Below are positions 10,291-43,477 of a DNA stretch of 64,000 bases, in pieces. The stretch is taken from assembly GCF_044324875.1 (NCBI RefSeq), contig NZ_CP172185.1. One strand, 5' to 3'. Origin of the DNA: Escherichia coli. Its GTDB lineage: Bacteria; Pseudomonadota; Gammaproteobacteria; Enterobacterales; Enterobacteriaceae. Made by a program: the position numbers and the translations under genes. The notes below the pieces were generated by a model, which did no database searches, was not told the origin of the DNA, and saw nothing but the letters and a program-made list of their open reading frames with translations. The stretch's first letter is position 1. Every line of letters starts with the position of its first letter.

Positions 10291-10332
10291 TGAACCGCCC
10301 CGGGTTTCCTGGAGAGTGTTTTATCTGTGAAC

Positions 10333-11223
10333 TCAGGCTGCCAGATCATCGTTTCCGATGGAAGCATAATAAGCTTTTTCTGCTTCTGCCGGTGGGATAT
10401 GGCCCAGCCTTTCCAGCAATCGTCGATTGTTATACCAGTCCACCCACGTGAGTGTGGCCAGCTCCACTTCTGTCCGGTTTTTCCAGCTCTTACGGTGTAT
10501 TACCTCCGCTTTGTAAAGGCCATTGATGCTCTCCGCCATCGCGTTGTCATACGAGTCACCAGTACTTCCTGTTGATGCCAGTAATCCGGCTTCCTTAAGC
10601 CGCTGTGTGTAGGCCAGCGATACATACTGAGAACCTTTATCACTGTGATGGACTGTGCCGGACGGTCGACGGGCCCATAACGCCTGCTCCAGAGCATCCA
10701 GCACGAATGTCGTTTCCATAGACGATGAGACCCGCCACCCCACGATGTATCCGGCAAACACATCAATGATGAACGCCACATAGACGACCCCCTGCCATGT
10801 GCTGACGTAAGTAAAATCAGCCACCCACAACTGGTCAGGACGTTCTGCCACAAACTGACGGTTTACGCGGTCGCCTGCGGCAACGGCTTTCCGGCTGACG
10901 GTAGTGCGGACCTTTTTACCCCGGAGAACACCGGCAAGTCCCATAACCGCCATGAGGCGCGCCACTGTACATCTGGCTACCCTGATTCCTTCCCGTAACA
11001 ACTGACGCCAGACTTTACGCACACCGTATACCTGATGATTCCCATCGTATACGCGCAGTATCTCTTTCTTCAGCCAGTCATCGCGCTGCGCACGGGCACT
11101 GCGTTTATCCGGATGATGTCGCTGTTGCTGACAGTGGTAATACGTTGACGGGGCAATATGTAGTTCACTGCATACCGGTCCGACCCCGTACAGCTTACGC
11201 AGCTTATCCAGCAGTGGCATCAC
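10333..11223 (-). CDS. IS629 transposase OrfB
   Basis: 296-aa ORF identical to copies 3 and 4. Confidence 0.85.
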
Positions 11224-11546
11224 TTTTTCCAGAGGCGGTCGAACTCCGCCTTCGCAAAATAAGCGGAAGCCTGGCGAAGGATATCGTTACTGCGGCGCAG
11301 TTCACGATTTTCACGTTCCAGCTCTTTCAGACGCTGACGTTCAGCGGTGGTGAGCCCGCCATCACCGCCTCCGGTATCCCGCTCATGCTGGCGTACCCAG
11401 ACACGCAGAGTCTCCGGTGTACAGCCAATCTTTGGGGCAATGGAACAAATTGCCGCCCACTGTGAGTCATATTCGCCCTGACTTTCCAGAACCATACGAA
11501 TCGCCCTCTGACGGACTTCGGGGGAAAAACGAGTATTTTTAGTCAT
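11220..11546 (-). CDS. IS629 transposase OrfA
   Basis: 108-aa ORF identical to other copies. Confidence 0.85.
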
Positions 11547-11600
11547 TCTGTTTACCTCTTTCTCAGGGAGTTTAGTCTCCAGGATTCCCGGGGCGGTTCA

Positions 11601-12608
11601 GTACTGCCGAATTAGCCCATTTGTGTTCTCATTTGTTCCCCGCTGCCAAGGACTCTGAGGATCGCAGAAGTAAACTTTAACGCCGGTGCTGACAGTAAAT
11701 TCTAGATGTCTGGCCAGTTCCATTCCTCTGTCCCATGTCAGTGATTTTCTGAGTTCTGACGGTAAACTCAGGAATTTGTCGGTAAGAGCCTGATTTACTG
11801 AGACAGAATCTTTGCCCCTGAGTCTAAGGATGATCGTATAACGTGATTTTCGGTCTACAAGTGTGGCTATATGAGAGTTTTTTGTACCTGAGACTAAATC
11901 GCCCTCCCAATGCCCCAGAGAGCGTCTGTTATCGATATTTCGGGAACGTTCGTGAATTGGTGTTCCGTTCACTATGTTAATCGTACCTCTTTCGCCTTTG
12001 CGGGTATGACGCCTGCCATGGCGAAGGCTATGCGACCGTCGCAGATGCTGTATATTCAGGTGGTGTAGCGCTTCACGGCTACGAAAGTACAGCGTTTTAT
12101 AAATTGTCTCAGGTGATATTCGCAGCGTTTTTTGACGTGGTTTTGTTCGCCTTAACCATCCTGATATTTGCTCTGGAGACCATTTCATCTCCAGCTTTTC
12201 CAGAACAAGCTTTCGCAATGGTAAATTTTGATCCAGTAAGCACGGTTTTGGCCTTTTCGCCATTCTGTTGGCTCGGTTATTAGCATCAACAGCTTTGTAA
12301 TAGCGTCTGCCCCGATTACGCTGAACTTCACGTGAGATCGTCGAAGGACTGCGATTCAGCGCAGTAGCTATCGCACGAATGCTCATTTTGGCTGACAAAC
12401 CAGCTCGTATCTCCTCGCGCTCAGACAGTGTCAGGTGAGCTACAGCCCGCTTACGCTCATGGGGTTTTATGCCGCCAGTATCCCTTAACATAGTGAAGAT
12501 CGTTCCGGGTTTTGAACCCAGGATATTCGCTATTTCACTGAAGCCTGTTCCGTTCTTCCATAGTTCAAAAACAGAGGCTTTTTCCTCTGCTGTAAATGTT
12601 CGTCTCAT
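11601..12608 (-). pseudogene. IS30 transposase, C-terminally truncated
   Basis: ORF 11598..12608 [20 protein letters not shown]...NENTNGLIRQY stops at the IS629 boundary; full IS30 transposase is longer. Confidence 0.8.
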
Positions 12609-17582: not shown

Positions 17583-17646
17583 ATTCGCTTCCTATTGCTC
17601 AACCTGAACCGCCCCGGGTTTCCTGGAGAGTGTTTTATCTGTGAAC

Positions 17647-18537
17647 TCAGGCTGCCAGATCATCGTTTCCGATGGAAGCATAATAAGCTTTTTCTGCTTC
17701 TGCCGGTGGGATATGGCCCAGCCTTTCCAGCAATCGTCGATTGTTATACCAGTCCACCCACGTGAGTGTGGCCAGCTCCACTTCTGTCCGGTTTTTCCAG
17801 CTCTTACGGTGTATTACCTCCGCTTTGTAAAGGCCATTGATGCTCTCCGCCATCGCGTTGTCATACGAGTCACCAGTACTTCCTGTTGATGCCAGTAATC
17901 CGGCTTCCTTAAGCCGCTGTGTGTAGGCCAGCGATACATACTGAGAACCTTTATCACTGTGATGGACTGTGCCGGACGGTCGACGGGCCCATAACGCCTG
18001 CTCCAGAGCATCCAGCACGAATGTCGTTTCCATAGACGATGAGACCCGCCACCCCACGATGTATCCGGCAAACACATCAATGATGAACGCCACATAGACG
18101 ACCCCCTGCCATGTGCTGACGTAAGTAAAATCAGCCACCCACAACTGGTCAGGACGTTCTGCCACAAACTGACGGTTTACGCGGTCGCCTGCGGCAACGG
18201 CTTTCCGGCTGACGGTAGTGCGGACCTTTTTACCCCGGAGAACACCGGCAAGTCCCATAACCGCCATGAGGCGCGCCACTGTACATCTGGCTACCCTGAT
18301 TCCTTCCCGTAACAACTGACGCCAGACTTTACGCACACCGTATACCTGATGATTCCCATCGTATACGCGCAGTATCTCTTTCTTCAGCCAGTCATCGCGC
18401 TGCGCACGGGCACTGCGTTTATCCGGATGATGTCGCTGTTGCTGACAGTGGTAATACGTTGACGGGGCAATATGTAGTTCACTGCATACCGGTCCGACCC
18501 CGTACAGCTTACGCAGCTTATCCAGCAGTGGCATCAC
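17647..18537 (-). CDS. IS629 transposase OrfB
   Basis: 296-aa ORF identical to copies 2 and 4. Confidence 0.85.
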
Positions 18538-18860
18538 TTTTTCCAGAGGCGGTCGAACTCCGCCTTCGCAAAATAAGCGGAAGCCTGGCGAAGGATATCG
18601 TTACTGCGGCGCAGTTCACGATTTTCACGTTCCAGCTCTTTCAGACGCTGACGTTCAGCGGTGGTGAGCCCGCCATCACCGCCTCCGGTATCCCGCTCAT
18701 GCTGGCGTACCCAGACACGCAGAGTCTCCGGTGTACAGCCAATCTTTGGGGCAATGGAACAAATTGCCGCCCACTGTGAGTCATATTCGCCCTGACTTTC
18801 CAGAACCATACGAATCGCCCTCTGACGGACTTCGGGGGAAAAACGAGTATTTTTAGTCAT
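18534..18860 (-). CDS. IS629 transposase OrfA
   Basis: 108-aa ORF. Confidence 0.85.
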
Positions 18861-18914
18861 TCTGTTTACCTCTTTCTCAGGGAGTTTAGTCTCCAGGATT
18901 CCCGGGGCGGTTCA

Positions 18915-19526: not shown

Positions 19527-19580
19527 TGAACCGCCCCGGGAATCCTGGAGACTAAACTCCCTGAGAAAGAGGTAAACAGA

Positions 19581-19907
19581 ATGACTAAAAATACTCGTTT
19601 TTCCCCCGAAGTCCGTCAGAGGGCGATTCGTATGGTTCTGGAAAGTCAGGGCGAATATGACTCACAGTGGGCGGCAATTTGTTCCATTGCCCCAAAGATT
19701 GGCTGTACACCGGAGACTCTGCGTGTCTGGGTACGCCAGCATGAGCGGGATACCGGAGGCGGTGATGGCGGGCTCACCACCGCTGAACGTCAGCGTCTGA
19801 AAGAGCTGGAACGTGAAAATCGTGAACTGCGCCGCAGTAACGATATCCTTCGCCAGGCTTCCGCTTATTTTGCGAAGGCGGAGTTCGACCGCCTCTGGAA
19901 AAAGTGA
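19581..19907 (+). CDS. IS629 transposase OrfA
   Basis: 108-aa ORF identical to other copies. Confidence 0.85.
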
Positions 19908-20794
19908 TGCCACTGCTGGATAAGCTGCGTAAGCTGTACGGGGTCGGACCGGTATGCAGTGAACTACATATTGCCCCGTCAACGTATTACCACTGTCAGC
20001 AACAGCGACATCATCCGGATAAACGCAGTGCCCGTGCGCAGCGCGATGACTGGCTGAAGAAAGAGATACTGCGCGTATACGATGGGAATCATCAGGTATA
20101 CGGTGTGCGTAAAGTCTGGCGTCAGTTGTTACGGGAAGGAATCAGGGTAGCCAGATGTACAGTGGCGCGCCTCATGGCGGTTATGGGACTTGCCGGTGTT
20201 CTCCGGGGTAAAAAGGTCCGCACTACCGTCAGCCGGAAAGCCGTTGCCGCAGGCGACCGCGTAAACCGTCAGTTTGTGGCAGAACGTCCTGACCAGTTGT
20301 GGGTGGCTGATTTTACTTACGTCAGCACATGGCAGGGGGTCGTCTATGTGGCGTTCATCATTGATGTGTTTGCCGGATACATCGTGGGGTGGCGGGTCTC
20401 ATCGTCTATGGAAACGACATTCGTGCTGGATGCTCTGGAGCAGGCGTTATGGGCCCGTCGACCGTCCGGCACAGTCCATCACAGTGATAAAGGTTCTCAG
20501 TATGTATCGCTGGCCTACACACAGCGGCTTAAGGAAGCCGGATTACTGGCATCAACAGGAAGTACTGGTGACTCGTATGACAACGCGATGGCGGAGAGCA
20601 TCAATGGCCTTTACAAAGCGGAGGTAATACACCGTAAGAGCTGGAAAAACCGGACAGAAGTGGAGCTGGCCACACTCACGTGGGTGGACTGGTATAACAA
20701 TCGACGATTGCTGGAAAGGCTGGGCCATATCCCACCGGCAGAAGCAGAAAAAGCTTATTATGCTTCCATCGGAAACGATGATCTGGCAGCCTGA
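19904..20794 (+). CDS. IS629 transposase OrfB
   Basis: 296-aa ORF identical to copies 2 and 3. Confidence 0.85.
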
Positions 20795-20836
20795 GTTCAC
20801 AGATAAAACACTCTCCAGGAAACCCGGGGCGGTTCA

Positions 20837-21543
20837 CAATGCTCTGGAATATCTCCAATCCAATCCACACCGGAGTCTTTCATTGGCACATTGGGATCAA
20901 GCCCTTGGGTCACCGCCTGTTGGATGATGATCTGCTTATGTTCTTTTAACAGATTAATTTGCTTTTCTTTGATCGAAATCGCTTCGTCGATTAGAGCGAT
21001 TTTCTTGTCTAGGAAGTTGGCGATACGGGTTTGTTGCTCATGGGGAGGAACAAACGTCTTAAAACTCAGAAATGAATCTTTAGGAATTGTATTTCTCAGG
21101 CCACGATAAAGCGGTTTAAGCATCTTTTTTGCATCAAGGTTCATATAAAAATAGTATAAAAACCTATTATCAAAATTGTCATTTAGTTCAAAAACGGTAT
21201 ATGCACCAGTAATCATCCCATTAAATGGCGACAACCCAACAGTTCTGGGTGTTTCTTCCACGTCGAACAAGCAGAAAATGAAATCTCCACACTGCACTTC
21301 TTGATAAGTATCGAACTCTGCTGGGAACTTACCCTCTGGGTTTTCCATATCACGCTTAATCACACCTCTGAGAGTAAGCGATAGCAAATCATATTCGCTT
21401 GAGCGTTTTCCAACCTGTTTTTTCTTCAAGCGAAAGATGTGCTTATTAGCTAATAAGCTCCAAGACGCAGGAATATCCCCTAGCCATTCAACACCTGAAT
21501 CCTTATAAACCTCATATTTCGGCATTTCAGAAATCTTCATCAT
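20837..21543 (-). pseudogene. hsdS: hsdS 5' half (first target-recognition domain and central conserved region), cut by IS629
   Basis: ORF 20797..21543; ...TRIANFLDKKIALIDEAISIKEKQINLLKEHKQIIIQQAVTQGLD...DIPEH then IS-derived read-through; start overlaps hsdM stop. Confidence 0.8.
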
Positions 21544-38830: not shown

Positions 38831-39841
38831 TCAGGCGGAGGGAGCAAGCGTTGTCTTGCCAGGATGAAATTCCGGCTGCCAGAGTACTTGTAGCATTTCA
38901 GGTGAAACATTCGTGACCAGCTGGCGTATCATGTCGGCAATCTGACGACCGACGCGATGTCGTGTTGACTGAAGAACTGCAGCCACATCCTGTTCAATAA
39001 TACTGTCCTGCGGCAGACCATCATAAACCACAAGAGAGACGGCATCCTCTCCGGACAGATGACCGGATAACTGCAGCGACATGGCCGCGCCATCACCGAT
39101 CAGGTCACTGTCGGTAATAATGGCCGTCGGGGGAAGCGGAAGTGACATTAACTCAGTCACTGCCTGGAAACCTGAGCGTCGGGTGGGAGAGACCCGGCGT
39201 AGCCAGGTCTCAGGCAGACCATGTTCACTCAGGGCATCGCGCCATCCCTGACGTCGTGCAGTGACATAGGCACGGGAGTTGTCCTCACTCAGCAGGGCAA
39301 TTCGCTGATGGCCCAGGGCAATCAGGTGCTGTGTGGCCTGCCAGGTTCCTGCATGGTTATCAAAGTCAAACCAGGCACAGGGAAGACCGGACGGCACCTG
39401 ACCGAGTGCCAGAAACGGAATACCGGCCTCCTGCAGGTGTGTAAGACGCGGGTCATTATCCATCGTGTGCGCCACGATAAGGGCATCAACCCGGCGGCTT
39501 TCGACCAGACGCATATAGCTGTGGCTGTCAGCCCGTTCATCATCGGCTATCAGCAGTAAGTCAATATCATGGCGGGCCAGTTCCCGGCTGATACAACTGA
39601 CCATATCCACAAACACACTACTGCTGAACAGTACAGCATGTTCAGGGAAGACCAGGCCGACCGCATCGGTTTTACCGGTTTTGAGACGTCTTGCCAGGGT
39701 ATTCGGGCGATAACCACGACGCCGAGCTTCCGCTTCTACACGTGCACGGGTCGAAGCGGAAACGTCCGAAAATCCGCCAAGCGCCCGGCTGACTGTGGTG
39801 ACAGAGATCCCGAGTTCGGCGGCGATAGCCTTGAGTGACAT
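38831..39841 (-). CDS. rafR: LacI-family transcriptional repressor (raffinose operon repressor type)
   Basis: 336-aa ORF with N-terminal helix-turn-helix (LKAIAAELGISVTTVSRALGG) and periplasmic-binding-fold domain. Confidence 0.7.
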   Translation of the reverse strand: MSLKAIAAELGISVTTVSRALGGFSDVSASTRARVEAEARRRGYRPNTLARRLKTGKTDAVGLVFPEHAVLFSSSVFVDMVSCISRELARHDIDLLLIADDERADSHSYMRLVESRRVDALIVAHTMDNDPRLTHLQEAGIPFLALGQVPSGLPCAWFDFDNHAGTWQATQHLIALGHQRIALLSEDNSRAYVTARRQGWRDALSEHGLPETWLRRVSPTRRSGFQAVTELMSLPLPPTAIITDSDLIGDGAAMSLQLSGHLSGEDAVSLVVYDGLPQDSIIEQDVAAVLQSTRHRVGRQIADMIRQLVTNVSPEMLQVLWQPEFHPGKTTLAPSA

Positions 39842-40266
39842 ATTTTCTCCTGCGGATAACTGAACAGCCCTGTCCCTGATGCGGGTGATCCGGGCAACAA
39901 ACCTGACAGAGACGCCTGCATAAGTGGTCGCGCTGTACCAGTATGAGCCTCCATCATCCTGATTTGTGTATTAACTTTCAATACCGGAGGACGATTTGAT
40001 TACCGGTTGTTAGCAGGAGTGCGAATATTAGACCGACGGTGGAGATCTAAGACTCAGTGAGCATAGCGATACACTATATTACTGTAATTAAGCCAGTAAA
40101 CTTCCTGTTCACTGGCTTAAACGCTAATGATGTATGCAGTTGAACAAGCTTTTAAACTAATGATTAATTGATATATAGACTGGCCCCCTGAATCTCCAGA
40201 CAATCAATATCACTTAAATAAGTGATAGTCTTAATACTAGTTTTTAGACTAGTCATTGGAGAACAG

Positions 40267-40632
40267 ATGATTGATGTCTTAGGGCCGGAGAAACGCAGAC
40301 GGCGTACCACACAGGAAAAGATCGCAATTGTTCAGCAGAGCTTTGAACCGGGGATGACGGTCTCCCTCGTTGCCCGGCAACATGGTGTAGCAGCCAGCCA
40401 GTTATTTCTCTGGCGTAAGCAATACCAGGAAGGAAGTCTTACTGCTGTCGCCGCCGGAGAACAGGTTGTTCCTGCCTCTGAACTTGCTGCCGCCATGAAG
40501 CAGATTAAAGAACTCCAGCGCCTGCTCGGCAAGAAAACGATGGAAAATGAACTCCTCAAAGAAGCCGTTGAATATGGACGGGCAAAAAAGTGGATAGCGC
40601 ACGCGCCCTTATTGCCCGGGGATGGGGAGTAA
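40267..40632 (+). CDS. insC: IS2 OrfA (InsC)
   Basis: [26 protein letters not shown]... 121 aa, matches recalled E. coli InsC. Confidence 0.85.
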
Positions 40633-41495
40633 GCTTAGTCAGCCGTTGTCTCCGGGTGTCGCGTGCGCAGTTGCACGTCATTCTCAGACGAACCGATGAC
40701 TGGATGGATGGCCGCCGCAGTCGTCACACTGATGATACGGATGTGCTTCTCCGTATACACCATGTTATCGGAGAGCTGCCAACGTATGGTTATCGTCGGG
40801 TATGGGCGCTGCTTCGCAGACAGGCAGAACTTGATGGTATGCCTGCGATCAATGCCAAACGTGTTTACCGGATCATGCGCCAGAATGCGCTGTTGCTTGA
40901 GCGAAAACCCGCTGTACCGCCATCGAAACGGGCACATACCGGCAGAGTGGCTGTGAAAGAAAGTAATCAGCGATAGTGCTCTGACGGGTTTGAGTTCCGC
41001 TGTGATAACGGAGAAAAACTGCGGGTCACGTTCGCGCTGGACTGCTGTGACCGTGAGGCACTGCACTGGGCGGTCACAACGGGTGGCTTCGACAGTGAAA
41101 CAGTACAGGACGTCATGCTGGGAGCAGTGGAACGCCGCTTTGGCAGCGAGCTTCCGGCGTCTCCAGTGGAGTGGCTGACGGATAATGGTTCATGCTACCG
41201 GGCGAATGAAACACGTCAGTTCGCCAGGATGTTGGGACTTGAACCGAAGAACACGGCAGTGCGGAGTCCGGAGAGTAACGGAATAGCAGAGAGCTTCGTG
41301 AAAACGATAAAGCGTGACTACATAAGTATCATGCCCAAACCAGACGGGTTAACGGCAGCAAAGAACCTTGCAGAGGCGTTCGAGCATTATAACGAATGGC
41401 ATCCGCATAGTGCACTGGGTTATCGCTCGCCACGGGAATATCTACGGCAGCGGGCCAGTAATGGGTTAAGTGATAACAGGTGTCTGGAAATATAG
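40590..41495 (+). pseudogene. insD: IS2 OrfB (InsD) with in-frame TAG at 40974-40976 (TGG to TAG, Trp to stop)
   Basis: ORFs 40590..40976 and 41115..41495 are in the same frame; ..KESNQR*CSDGFEF.. where E. coli InsD has ..NQRWCSDGFEF. Confidence 0.75.
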
Positions 41496-41821
41496 GGGCA
41501 AATCCAATCGTTAGCCATGGCCTCCCTACTCCAGAGATAATATAAAGGGGCGGGCTCAACAGATTTATCTTTACGTCGCTTGCACTGCAAATATTCAGAA
41601 ATTAGTCTATGCAGTTCACCAGTAAAATCAGCCATCAGAGAGGGAATTGCCTTATTCATACCTGGGCAAGGTATTAATTTAAATTGTAATAATTTAATTT
41701 TAGGATGTGTAGCTGCAGCCCGATACAGAGTTGCAAGGACACACTTTTGCCAGAGGACGTTACAGGAAAGCTTAATGTTTGATTCTGTATACATAATAAA
41801 TCACCTTACAGTTACAATAGG

Positions 41822-43477
41822 TCAAAAACCGCTGTAGCCAAAGTTACGCTGACCTGATGCTTTAGTGTCGAGCTTCGTCAGATAATCCAGACGTGCCAAT
41901 AAGCGCTGATACTGCTCAGGGAAATCAGGATCGTTAATATCCAGGATGTAACGTCCATTAGTAGGGAAATGAACTAATCCCTGGTGATCTTCCAGTTCCA
42001 ACCCTAAGGCGCTGTACCAGGCTCCGGTAATTAACCCTCTCAGGGTGTCAGAGCGCTCATAGTCTCCCAGGTGGTAATAGGCGTCTTTGTTAAACAACAG
42101 GCAGACGTGATAATGACATTTAAAGGACTGTGTATATTCTTTCGCCCAGATAATACAAACCGACGTTGCGTAGGTGCGTTTGCCTTATTGTTTTTTACGG
42201 TGTTGATCTGCATTAATTTTCGCATTCAGCGAGTTACGGAAACGAGATATCTCTCCGGGGATCAGGTTAGGGAAACAGGTAATGGTATCCCCGTTGTCAA
42301 TCACAGGAGGGTAATGGAGATCCACCCGTATTGCTGTTATTCTGGAAGTATTTTTAATATTCGTATTGATAGTTCTCAGAGATATATCACACTCTAGATA
42401 TTTTAATTAAGTATCAGTTCGATATCGGCATATTGTACACTACCTCAGGTAGATGATGAGATCAGATACAGGGATCAACTGACGGTGAACGCAGTCCCCA
42501 CATTTTATCCAGGGCTTACTGCATATTCCCAACAGCCATTCGTTAGCCAGGTAGACGAATACCCTTTCCGCTGGTTTTGCTTTCCCATCGAAGGGCCCAT
42601 ACATCATCACGCCCGCGAAACAACCGACGAAATAATGCAACCTTCTCGTCGGTGGATAATACGAAAACGCACTGCACAGGGCTCTGCGGTTTACGTCACC
42701 ATTCAATCCCATGAGCTTCAAGTTATGCTTGCCCTTAGTGCAGCTAATTCATCACTGTCAGATTTATGAACTATATGCGTTATCTGTACCTGCCCCACGG
42801 GGTACCACCACAGAAGATGAAGTGTCATAGTCCCCTGCGCTGAGGACAAAGCTACGCATTAACGACAAATCCACGCGATAACTTACGATAGTTCGGACAT
42901 AAGCCCCCATAATTCAGTTATGTCGTGGTCGGCCGCGGTTACTTTTTTCGGGAAGCCTGCTACGGCCCAGAATAATACCGTGTTCTTTCTGATCCTGTTT
43001 AGCCAGATAGCTAAGGGCGTAACGTAAGTCGTCTACCGCAGACTTATCACTATAGTGAATCACGTGATCGATACGCACCGGGTATTTATCTTTAGCCCGG
43101 CACAGATGAAAATAAGCCTCCCCTTCCGTGATCCGCCTCCAGATATCTCCCAGTTGCCTGGATATCTGATAAGAGTTCTTGTGACGTTGTCCATCCAGAT
43201 AGCCGATAAAATGAATATGAAGCCCTTTGTCTGGTGTATATTCCATAACCCAGTAATATCCTGCCAACATCGTCTGGGTTTCGCTAAGTAAACGGTATAT
43301 TTCCATACACATACTGTGCTTACAGGAATGCCCGAAACTGGGCGTGTCTTTCCTGTAGGCAAAATCAATTCTGAAAGGTAACAGTTTAGAAAAACGTTGA
43401 AACAATCCCTCCATGTGTTCATTCACATCTTTCAGAATCGCGAAATTCATTTCGTAATTGGGATTGGCATTATACAT
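41822..43477 (-). pseudogene. YagK/YfjJ-like (inovirus Gp2-family) prophage gene, decayed into several frames
   Basis: Same-strand ORFs 42914..43477, 42440..42721, 42040..42225, 41822..42097 with dispersed similarity to the family; assignment from memory only. Confidence 0.4.

Follow-up and report, generated by a model that had tools for sequence, protein, structure and literature searches.

The question raised by this locus is whether an insertion sequence that is complete in length, and that lies beside a raffinose-utilisation module, can still make its own transposase and, if it cannot, what role is left to the copy. The element occupies positions 40176-41506 on the plus strand of the analysed 64,000-nt stretch of the Escherichia coli contig NZ_CP172185.1 (hereafter, the window), and alignment with IS2A of strain K-12 identifies it as a full-length IS2 of the IS3 family. 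It is 1331 bp long and colinear with the K-12 copy, with no indels and 31 substitutions (97.7% overall identity), which are the length and the full-length nucleotide identity of an IS2; it starts with TAGACTGGCCCCC and ends with GGGGCAAATCCA.

The lengths of the inverted repeats, the positions of the OrfA docking site and the promoter, and the A6G window of IS2 were taken from published work (PMC3299598). All these parts are found here, on the plus strand. The terminal inverted repeats are imperfect, and each departs from its K-12 counterpart at one position: the 42-bp left repeat IRL (40176-40217) has a single C-to-T substitution at its position 29 (40204), while the 41-bp right repeat IRR (41466-41506), which keeps the terminal CA at its 3' end, is one base off at position 27 from the tip (41480). 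The ends had been called intact in an earlier reading of the sequence alone (the sequence-only reading). For IRR this can be maintained, as it is identical to the IRR of a copy in strain FDAARGOS_1303 that is flanked by target repeats, while for IRL it has to be qualified by the substitution at position 29. The region 40214-40226, which comprises the OrfA docking sequence (IS2 bp 39-48, with TAAATAA) together with the first bases of the extended -10 promoter PIRL (TGAT, bp 48-51), is the same as in K-12 in both of its parts.

The two-frame organisation of the coding region is also that of IS2. The first gene, orfA (insC; 40267-40632), encodes the 121-aa IS2 repressor OrfA/InsA and has no nucleotide differences from K-12 insC1, in agreement with the earlier statement that insC is intact. 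The slippery heptamer AAAAAAG of the A6G window (40584-40590), at which the programmed -1 frameshift takes place, is intact and identical to that of K-12; the orfB frame opens at the GTG at 40590, and at homologous loci PGAP marks a "programmed frameshift". For the protein scans of OrfAB the stop codon discussed below was replaced by W. The restored protein was assigned by NCBIfam to NF006918 "IS2 transposase TnpB" (709.5 bits, cutoff 597) and to NF033516 transpos_IS3 (282.8 bits, cutoff 160), and its OrfA part to NF006928 "IS2 repressor TnpA" (238.8 bits, cutoff 229); Pfam recognised HTH_Tnp_1 at residues 8-87, HTH_21 at 172-212, rve at 232-335, and rve_3 at 324-389. Both OrfA and OrfB, with W restored, hence belong to the protein families of IS2 and IS3 transposition proteins. 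The element is IS2 by descent and, to all appearance, not an autonomous IS2.

The reason for the latter statement is found in orfB (insD). At 40974-40976 on the plus strand an amber codon lies within AAT CAG CGA TAG TGC TCT GAC GGG TTT GAG TTC (N Q R * C S D G F E F), in the same frame as the orfB GTG. The N-terminal 128 codons are still open (40590-40973, plus strand; the middle interval with HTH_21, OrfAB residues 172-212), and the ORF 40590-40976 accordingly encodes 128 aa with the C-terminus ...VAVKESNQR. The codon is residue 129 of InsD or, with the -1 frameshift at A6G counted, residue 237 of the 409-aa OrfAB, three codons ahead of the catalytic Asp240. In K-12 MG1655 IS2A (insC1/insD1, b0360/b0361) this codon is TGG, as it also is in intact IS2 copies at the same locus, which points to a G-to-A transition at 40975. 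An in-frame stop in place of Trp had been noticed in the sequence-only reading, and the alignment to a reference IS2, which that reading had proposed as a check and which might have revealed the same stop in the reference, bore it out, with TGG in K-12 b0361. That reading had also spoken of a single change. This stands in so far as the element has no nonsense or frameshift lesion besides TAG; as a description of the whole copy it does not, because 31 of the 1331 positions differ from K-12 IS2A, and "a single disabling change" would be a fair wording.

What remains of orfB downstream of the stop (40977-41495, plus strand) should no longer be translated, though it comprises the whole catalytic core, covered by rve (232-335) and rve_3 (324-389), with the codons for D240, D306 and E342 retained. 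The only ATG-started ORF downstream of TAG, 41115-41495, begins at residue 284 and lacks D240. An uninterrupted OrfAB frame through the DDE core (D240, D306, E342), which an autonomous IS2 needs, is absent from this copy.

The expected effect can be read against the domain map of OrfAB, in which the H+HTH domain spans residues 13-60, a leucine-zipper-like motif 70-103, the middle interval 104-206, a disordered linker 207-235, and the catalytic active site, with the triad D240/D306/E342, residues 236-398 (Lewis et al., Mob DNA, 2011; PMC3219604). In the same work the single substitution W237R abolished transposition and left DNA binding intact (PMC3219604). The lesion in the window hits the same residue of beta-strand 1, three residues before D240. 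It differs from W237R, which is a missense change in a full-length DNA-binding protein, in being a stop, with which the whole catalytic core is gone. After frameshifting, translation would end at residue 236, and of these domains the predicted product would retain H+HTH, which binds DNA, the zipper-like motif and the middle interval but lose the DDE core 236-398. Since the stop at codon 237 deletes the whole core, it is strongly indicated, by the sequence taken together with published mutagenesis and domain mapping of a different IS2 allele, that this copy would be unable to make transposase. The OrfA repressor should still be made and both terminal repeats are retained, and in principle the element would move only with OrfAB supplied by another IS2. 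We are thus highly confident in reading it as a decayed, non-autonomous IS2 at the edge of the raf module, inside an integrase-bearing genomic island, with the stop brought about by the G-to-A change at 40975.

A single-base difference from the reference, in an element without a 100% match in any complete E. coli genome, could be suspected of being a sequencing or assembly error that hides an intact transposase. The distribution of the allele leaves next to no room for this. The best matches to the window IS2, in eight complete E. coli chromosomes, agree at 1330 of 1331 positions (99.9%), and the lone mismatch is not the stop but position 40781 (A in the window and in K-12, C in the matches). 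An exact 90-mer centred on TAG, used as a probe for the allele among complete E. coli genomes, was matched exactly and in full in 11 of them: eight carry both junctions of the window copy; in two, STEC384 and STEC379, the left junction is shared, the right flank is longer and IS2 is interrupted by an IS3; and one (FDAARGOS_1303) has a TAG-bearing IS2 at an unrelated site. The same TAG is, consequently, present at the rafR-IS2 junction in 10 independent complete assemblies, and it is also found in further draft assemblies. PGAP annotates the copies at this locus as [quoted passage not shown]; the pseudogenes KZ312_RS10885 (strain 135) and U3938_RS03530 (strain 673), for instance, have the same junctions and the same TAG and differ from the window copy by 1 nt in 1331. 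Because the allele is shared by so many assemblies, a read or assembly error is rejected, and the stop is evidently inherited by descent along with the surrounding island.

It might also be supposed that the amber codon is read through or suppressed, with some full-length transposase made. Amber suppressor tRNAs do exist in laboratory strains of E. coli, and UAG is known to be read through naturally at a low level. On the other hand, UAG followed by U, as here, is a strong termination context in E. coli, and the common amber suppressors insert Gln, Tyr or Ser. ARAGORN found no tRNA gene in the window, neither a possible suppressor nor a possible attachment site of the island, and nothing else points to a suppressor. 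Moreover, even the replacement W237R abolishes activity (PMC3219604). Taken together, these points make a readthrough product extremely improbable, and the loss of transposase remains by far the better reading.

The differences from K-12 IS2A are distributed very unevenly: a single substitution falls within the first 734 nt, and the remaining 597 nt contain 30 and are about 5% divergent. The two elements are alike in their length, orfA, A6G window, OrfA docking site and promoter region (all identical in sequence), and differ in codon 237 (TGG there, TAG here) and in the features peculiar to the window copy, i.e., the mosaic right half, the C29T substitution in IRL, the one substitution in IRR, and the lack of a 5-bp duplication. 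Besides the stop, orfB has 22 synonymous differences and seven conservative replacements (C245R, R251K, N276D, N294S, D295E, S298A and C398S), a ratio which argues that purifying selection acted on the lineage until the stop arose. All seven replacements are also found in the intact, PGAP-annotated protein encoded at the same locus in AR_0085 (WP_106421676.1), from which the restored window protein differs only at residue 173 and at the stop.

The IRL substitution at position 29 (40204) lies inside the protein-binding domain. T is found at this position in all 11 raf-locus copies fetched from other genomes, including copies with an intact transposase, and in none of the 23 copies at other sites, which have C. 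It looks like a private substitution acquired after the insertion, and it could constitute a second, cis-acting defect. The right halves behave differently from the constant left half: in a comparison of same-locus copies with reference copies from other sites their haplotypes differ by up to 35 substitutions per 700 bp, and at least four of them occur across strains on the left half that is constant among the raf-locus copies compared. Such a combination implies repeated recombination or gene conversion between IS2 copies. In one draft genome (L017) the TAG-bearing right half and the right flank of the window copy are preceded by a different left flank and a different left end of IS2.

The flanks have a history of their own. 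The 5 bp to the left of the element, in the position expected for one half of a target duplication, are ATATA (40171-40175), and those to the right are ATCGT (41507-41511), whereas the K-12 IS2A used as a control has ATTAC on both sides. The absence of a direct repeat, noted earlier from the sequence, is hence real; it bears on the history of the insertion and not on the identity of the element as IS2. The left junction, ...TTGATATA|TAGACTGG, between the rafR flank and IS2, is found in 227 of the 5426 complete E. coli genomes, and TAG accompanies it in 10 of these 227. The right junctions vary. AR_0085 and STEC384 keep 601 bp that are absent from the window (L007:5482-6082), APEC O2-211 and FORC 064 keep about 472 bp, part of the same segment (L011:3578-4051), TUM9803 has the junction of the window (also compared with L008:5482), and MS 119-7 has lost a further 15 bp. 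In other words, four nested right junctions, every one of them starting exactly at the last base of IRR, are combined with one shared left junction, and ATATA recurs in none of them. The right flank of the window, with its 601 bp fewer than in AR_0085 counted from the exact tip of IRR, is one step in this series. The conclusion of the sequence-only reading that the flanks were rearranged after the insertion is therefore supported by comparison between strains: the same left junction with differing right junctions and differing right halves of IS2 means that both flanks and interior were reshuffled, which explains the missing 5-bp duplication.

As for the mechanism, all four combinations of TGG or TAG with the longest (+601) or the window-type right junction exist (in AR_0085, STEC384, TUM9803 and the window), so that gene conversion or recurrent events have to be invoked. 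Adjacent deletions anchored at IRR, along with gene conversion among IS2 copies, would fit these data, and homologous crossover between the raf-linked IS2 and nearby IS2 copies would fit them equally well. What these comparisons do bring out is that the dead element serves as a portable patch of homology and as an end-point of deletions. We also considered a deletion between short repeats, given that the 9-bp microhomology ATCGTTAGC is found near both ends of the 601-bp segment. This route was rejected: it would have left AGTACTATT beside IS2, and this sequence is absent there in the window, which indicates that the 601-bp deletion was anchored at the tip of the IS.

A candidate for the empty site is offered by the Salmonella IncFII plasmid NZ_CP022492.1, in which the rafR flank runs up to ...TTGATATA and is followed by unrelated sequence with no IS (L024:3476/3477). 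The sequence downstream of this point agrees neither with the window nor with the longest of the right flanks; the original right flank was not recovered. In IncK2/Z plasmids (pLH50-c-A, NZ_CP100501.1; L025:3477-4806) a different IS, 69% identical to IS2 and beginning with TGAGCTGGCCCCCTGAAACACC, is inserted after the same nucleotide of TTGATATA.

The sequence-only reading held that the element is probably immobile unless complemented, which agrees with published IS2 data. The contrary proposal is that the defective copy is still mobile, its ends being used by OrfAB in trans, and that transposition in this non-autonomous form has spread the TAG allele. The principal argument for this comes from FDAARGOS_1303 (NZ_CP070045.1, L005:4247-5577), where a full-length IS2, divergent throughout, carries the same TAG, shares with the window an identical 589-bp block that includes the stop (40825-41413), and lies between perfect CTAAC repeats; its insertion site is found in this one genome among 5426. 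A K-12-type IS2 with TAG at codon 237 and a perfect ATAAC duplication is likewise present in LS992166.1; IRR of the window copy is the same as in the FDAARGOS_1303 element, and among genomes in which this IS2 has any match the median number of matching places is three. In view of the CTAAC repeat, "immobile" may be too strong a word. However, the FDAARGOS_1303 copy could have arisen by mobilisation in trans, by mutation in place after an insertion, or by gene conversion, and repeat-flanked copies with a stop may equally well be intact insertions that were mutated where they stood or that received TAG by conversion, a process which the mosaic haplotypes show to be common. Transposases of the IS3 family act preferentially in cis, as is known from IS911, and no second IS2 that might act as a donor in trans is present in the window. 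No other record of the truncated product of the FDAARGOS_1303 haplotype was found, and we see no sign of proliferation; nor was a second site with the T29 and TAG markers of the window copy found among 11 raf-locus copies and 23 copies elsewhere. Proliferation of the TAG allele as a non-autonomous element accordingly receives no support, the FDAARGOS_1303 product being unique and T29 being confined to the raf locus, and we regard continued mobility of the defective copy as unlikely, if a good deal less so than the error and readthrough explanations.

Codon 237 is of interest in another respect, since stops at this position have been met more than once. Records of precisely this 128-aa truncated InsD exist for 32 contigs, which represent several contexts. 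The TAG allele is found on a K-12-type element (LS992166.1, mentioned above) and on another K-12-like haplotype, and TGA is found in two IS2 copies (L013 and L014) on a single 231-kb contig, PSST01000001.1 (GCA_002968235.1), which also carries IpaH-like, CcdAB and ParM-type genes. CTGAA lies to the left of one of these two TGA copies and to the right of the other, a crossed arrangement that would be expected after inversion by recombination between the two.

One might then suppose that truncation has been favoured, i.e., that OrfAB(1-236) is retained as a trans-dominant inhibitor, a domesticated regulator under selection, which would bind the IS2 ends and oligomerise without catalysis and so brake the IS2 elements of the host in trans, the recurrent stops at codon 237 reflecting selection for the brake. 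In favour of this, both stop codons are met at codon 237, on at least three IS2 backgrounds: TAG on the K-12-type, divergent and hybrid ones, and TGA on the contig that resembles a Shigella virulence plasmid. The stop does fall exactly where the disordered linker (207-235) gives way to the catalytic site (236-398) (PMC3219604), and a truncated IS911 protein, OrfAB(1-149), has been used as an end-binding form (mentioned in PMC3299598). Against this stand the Trp codons of InsD taken together. With the intact K-12 InsD, present on at least 1000 contigs, as the base of comparison, we looked up the exact truncated product for each of them and obtained 12 contigs for W38, 73 for W72, 32 for W129 (codon 237 of OrfAB), 15 for W160 (and seven more of a divergent haplotype), 25 for W195 and 37 for W270. 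For the W72, W160 and W195 alleles TAG or TGA was confirmed in the DNA, several of the copies still having their 5-bp repeats. These IS2 pseudogenes of E. coli and Shigella have followed the same route of decay as the window copy, a TGG-to-TAG or TGG-to-TGA transition with both ends kept and, in many cases, the 5-bp repeats as well; they differ from it in the codon affected and in the locus. Stops at other codons on comparable numbers of contigs speak against W237 as a mutational or selective hot spot, which we reject: codon 237 is not enriched, and we see no evidence of selection for truncation. The recurrence of one nonsense codon on different backgrounds does not by itself indicate selection, and it can do without it because TGG is the codon most easily turned into a stop by a transition. 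Furthermore, of the 227 genomes that share this junction only 10 have the stop, copies at the same locus decay in other ways too (by the internal deletion in APEC O2-211, by IS3 or IS21 insertions), and frameshifting is normally rare, so that little truncated protein would be produced. A regulatory role of the truncated product, and selection for it, are consequently very unlikely, and ordinary decay remains our explanation of the stop.

The surroundings of the element fit its place at a border. To its left a LacI-family raffinose repressor gene (rafR-like; 38831-39841, minus strand), recognised from the ORF list, the annotation of homologous loci and matches of genes nearby to the Pfam families LacI and Melibiase, starts 334 bp from IS2, which lies upstream of its start codon; it heads a cluster encoding an alpha-galactosidase, an MFS permease and a GH32 hydrolase, that is, a raffinose-utilisation (raf) module. 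To the right of IS2 are genes of a decayed CP4-like integrative island, among them an inovirus-Gp2-family pseudogene, a primase fragment, a DUF3987 gene and a tyrosine integrase. Directly adjoining IS2, on the minus strand at 41822-42385, at about 42449-42791 and at 42914-43477, there are, respectively, a Gp2-family gene with an internal stop, a fragment with a TOTE conflict-system primase domain, and an intact gene of the Gp2/YagK-YfjJ type; the Gp2 genes and the primase fragment are decayed cargo of the CP4-like island. In strain 673 the island adjoins clpA, while in the window (about 48600-52700 onward) and in strain 135 its right side leads to putP/efeB, from which it follows that the island occupies different chromosomal sites.

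Taken as a whole, this is ordinary decay of an insertion sequence: the element is known, the lesion is of a known kind, the residue affected is experimentally essential, and annotation of sister genomes has already flagged the stop. The proper label for the copy is that of an IS2 pseudogene, interrupted internally by an amber stop at OrfAB codon 237, and not that of a working transposase; beyond correct annotation its significance is small. What our analysis adds is the IRL substitution, the comparative evidence for reshuffling of the flanks and of the right half, and the negative result on a hot spot; the locus also illustrates how an IS goes on shaping the genome after losing its transposase, by remaining, at the edge of a mobile raf module, a substrate for recombination and conversion and for deletions anchored at its end.

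Several further mobile elements were observed at this locus and near it. The raf-locus IS2 of STEC384 (L006:3176-4436) has a 1261-bp insertion after IS2 position 190, annotated with an IS3 transposase; that of another genome (L020:3794-5918) has near position 1204 an insertion that codes for proteins of the IS21 type (IstB_IS21 family), with IS2 bases 1204-1207 on both sides of it; and the one in APEC O2-211 (L011) has an internal deletion of about 228 bp (equivalent to 40378-40605 of the window). The left third of the window contains four copies of an IS of about 1311 bp, at 646-1956, about 10291-11601, 17605-18914 and 19527-20837, the last one inverted. For the copy in strain 673 the annotation names an IS3-family transposase, a programmed frameshift and an AL1L pseudoknot, and the homologous stretch of strain 673 has a single copy of this IS as against the four in the window, the window strain thus being the richer of the two.
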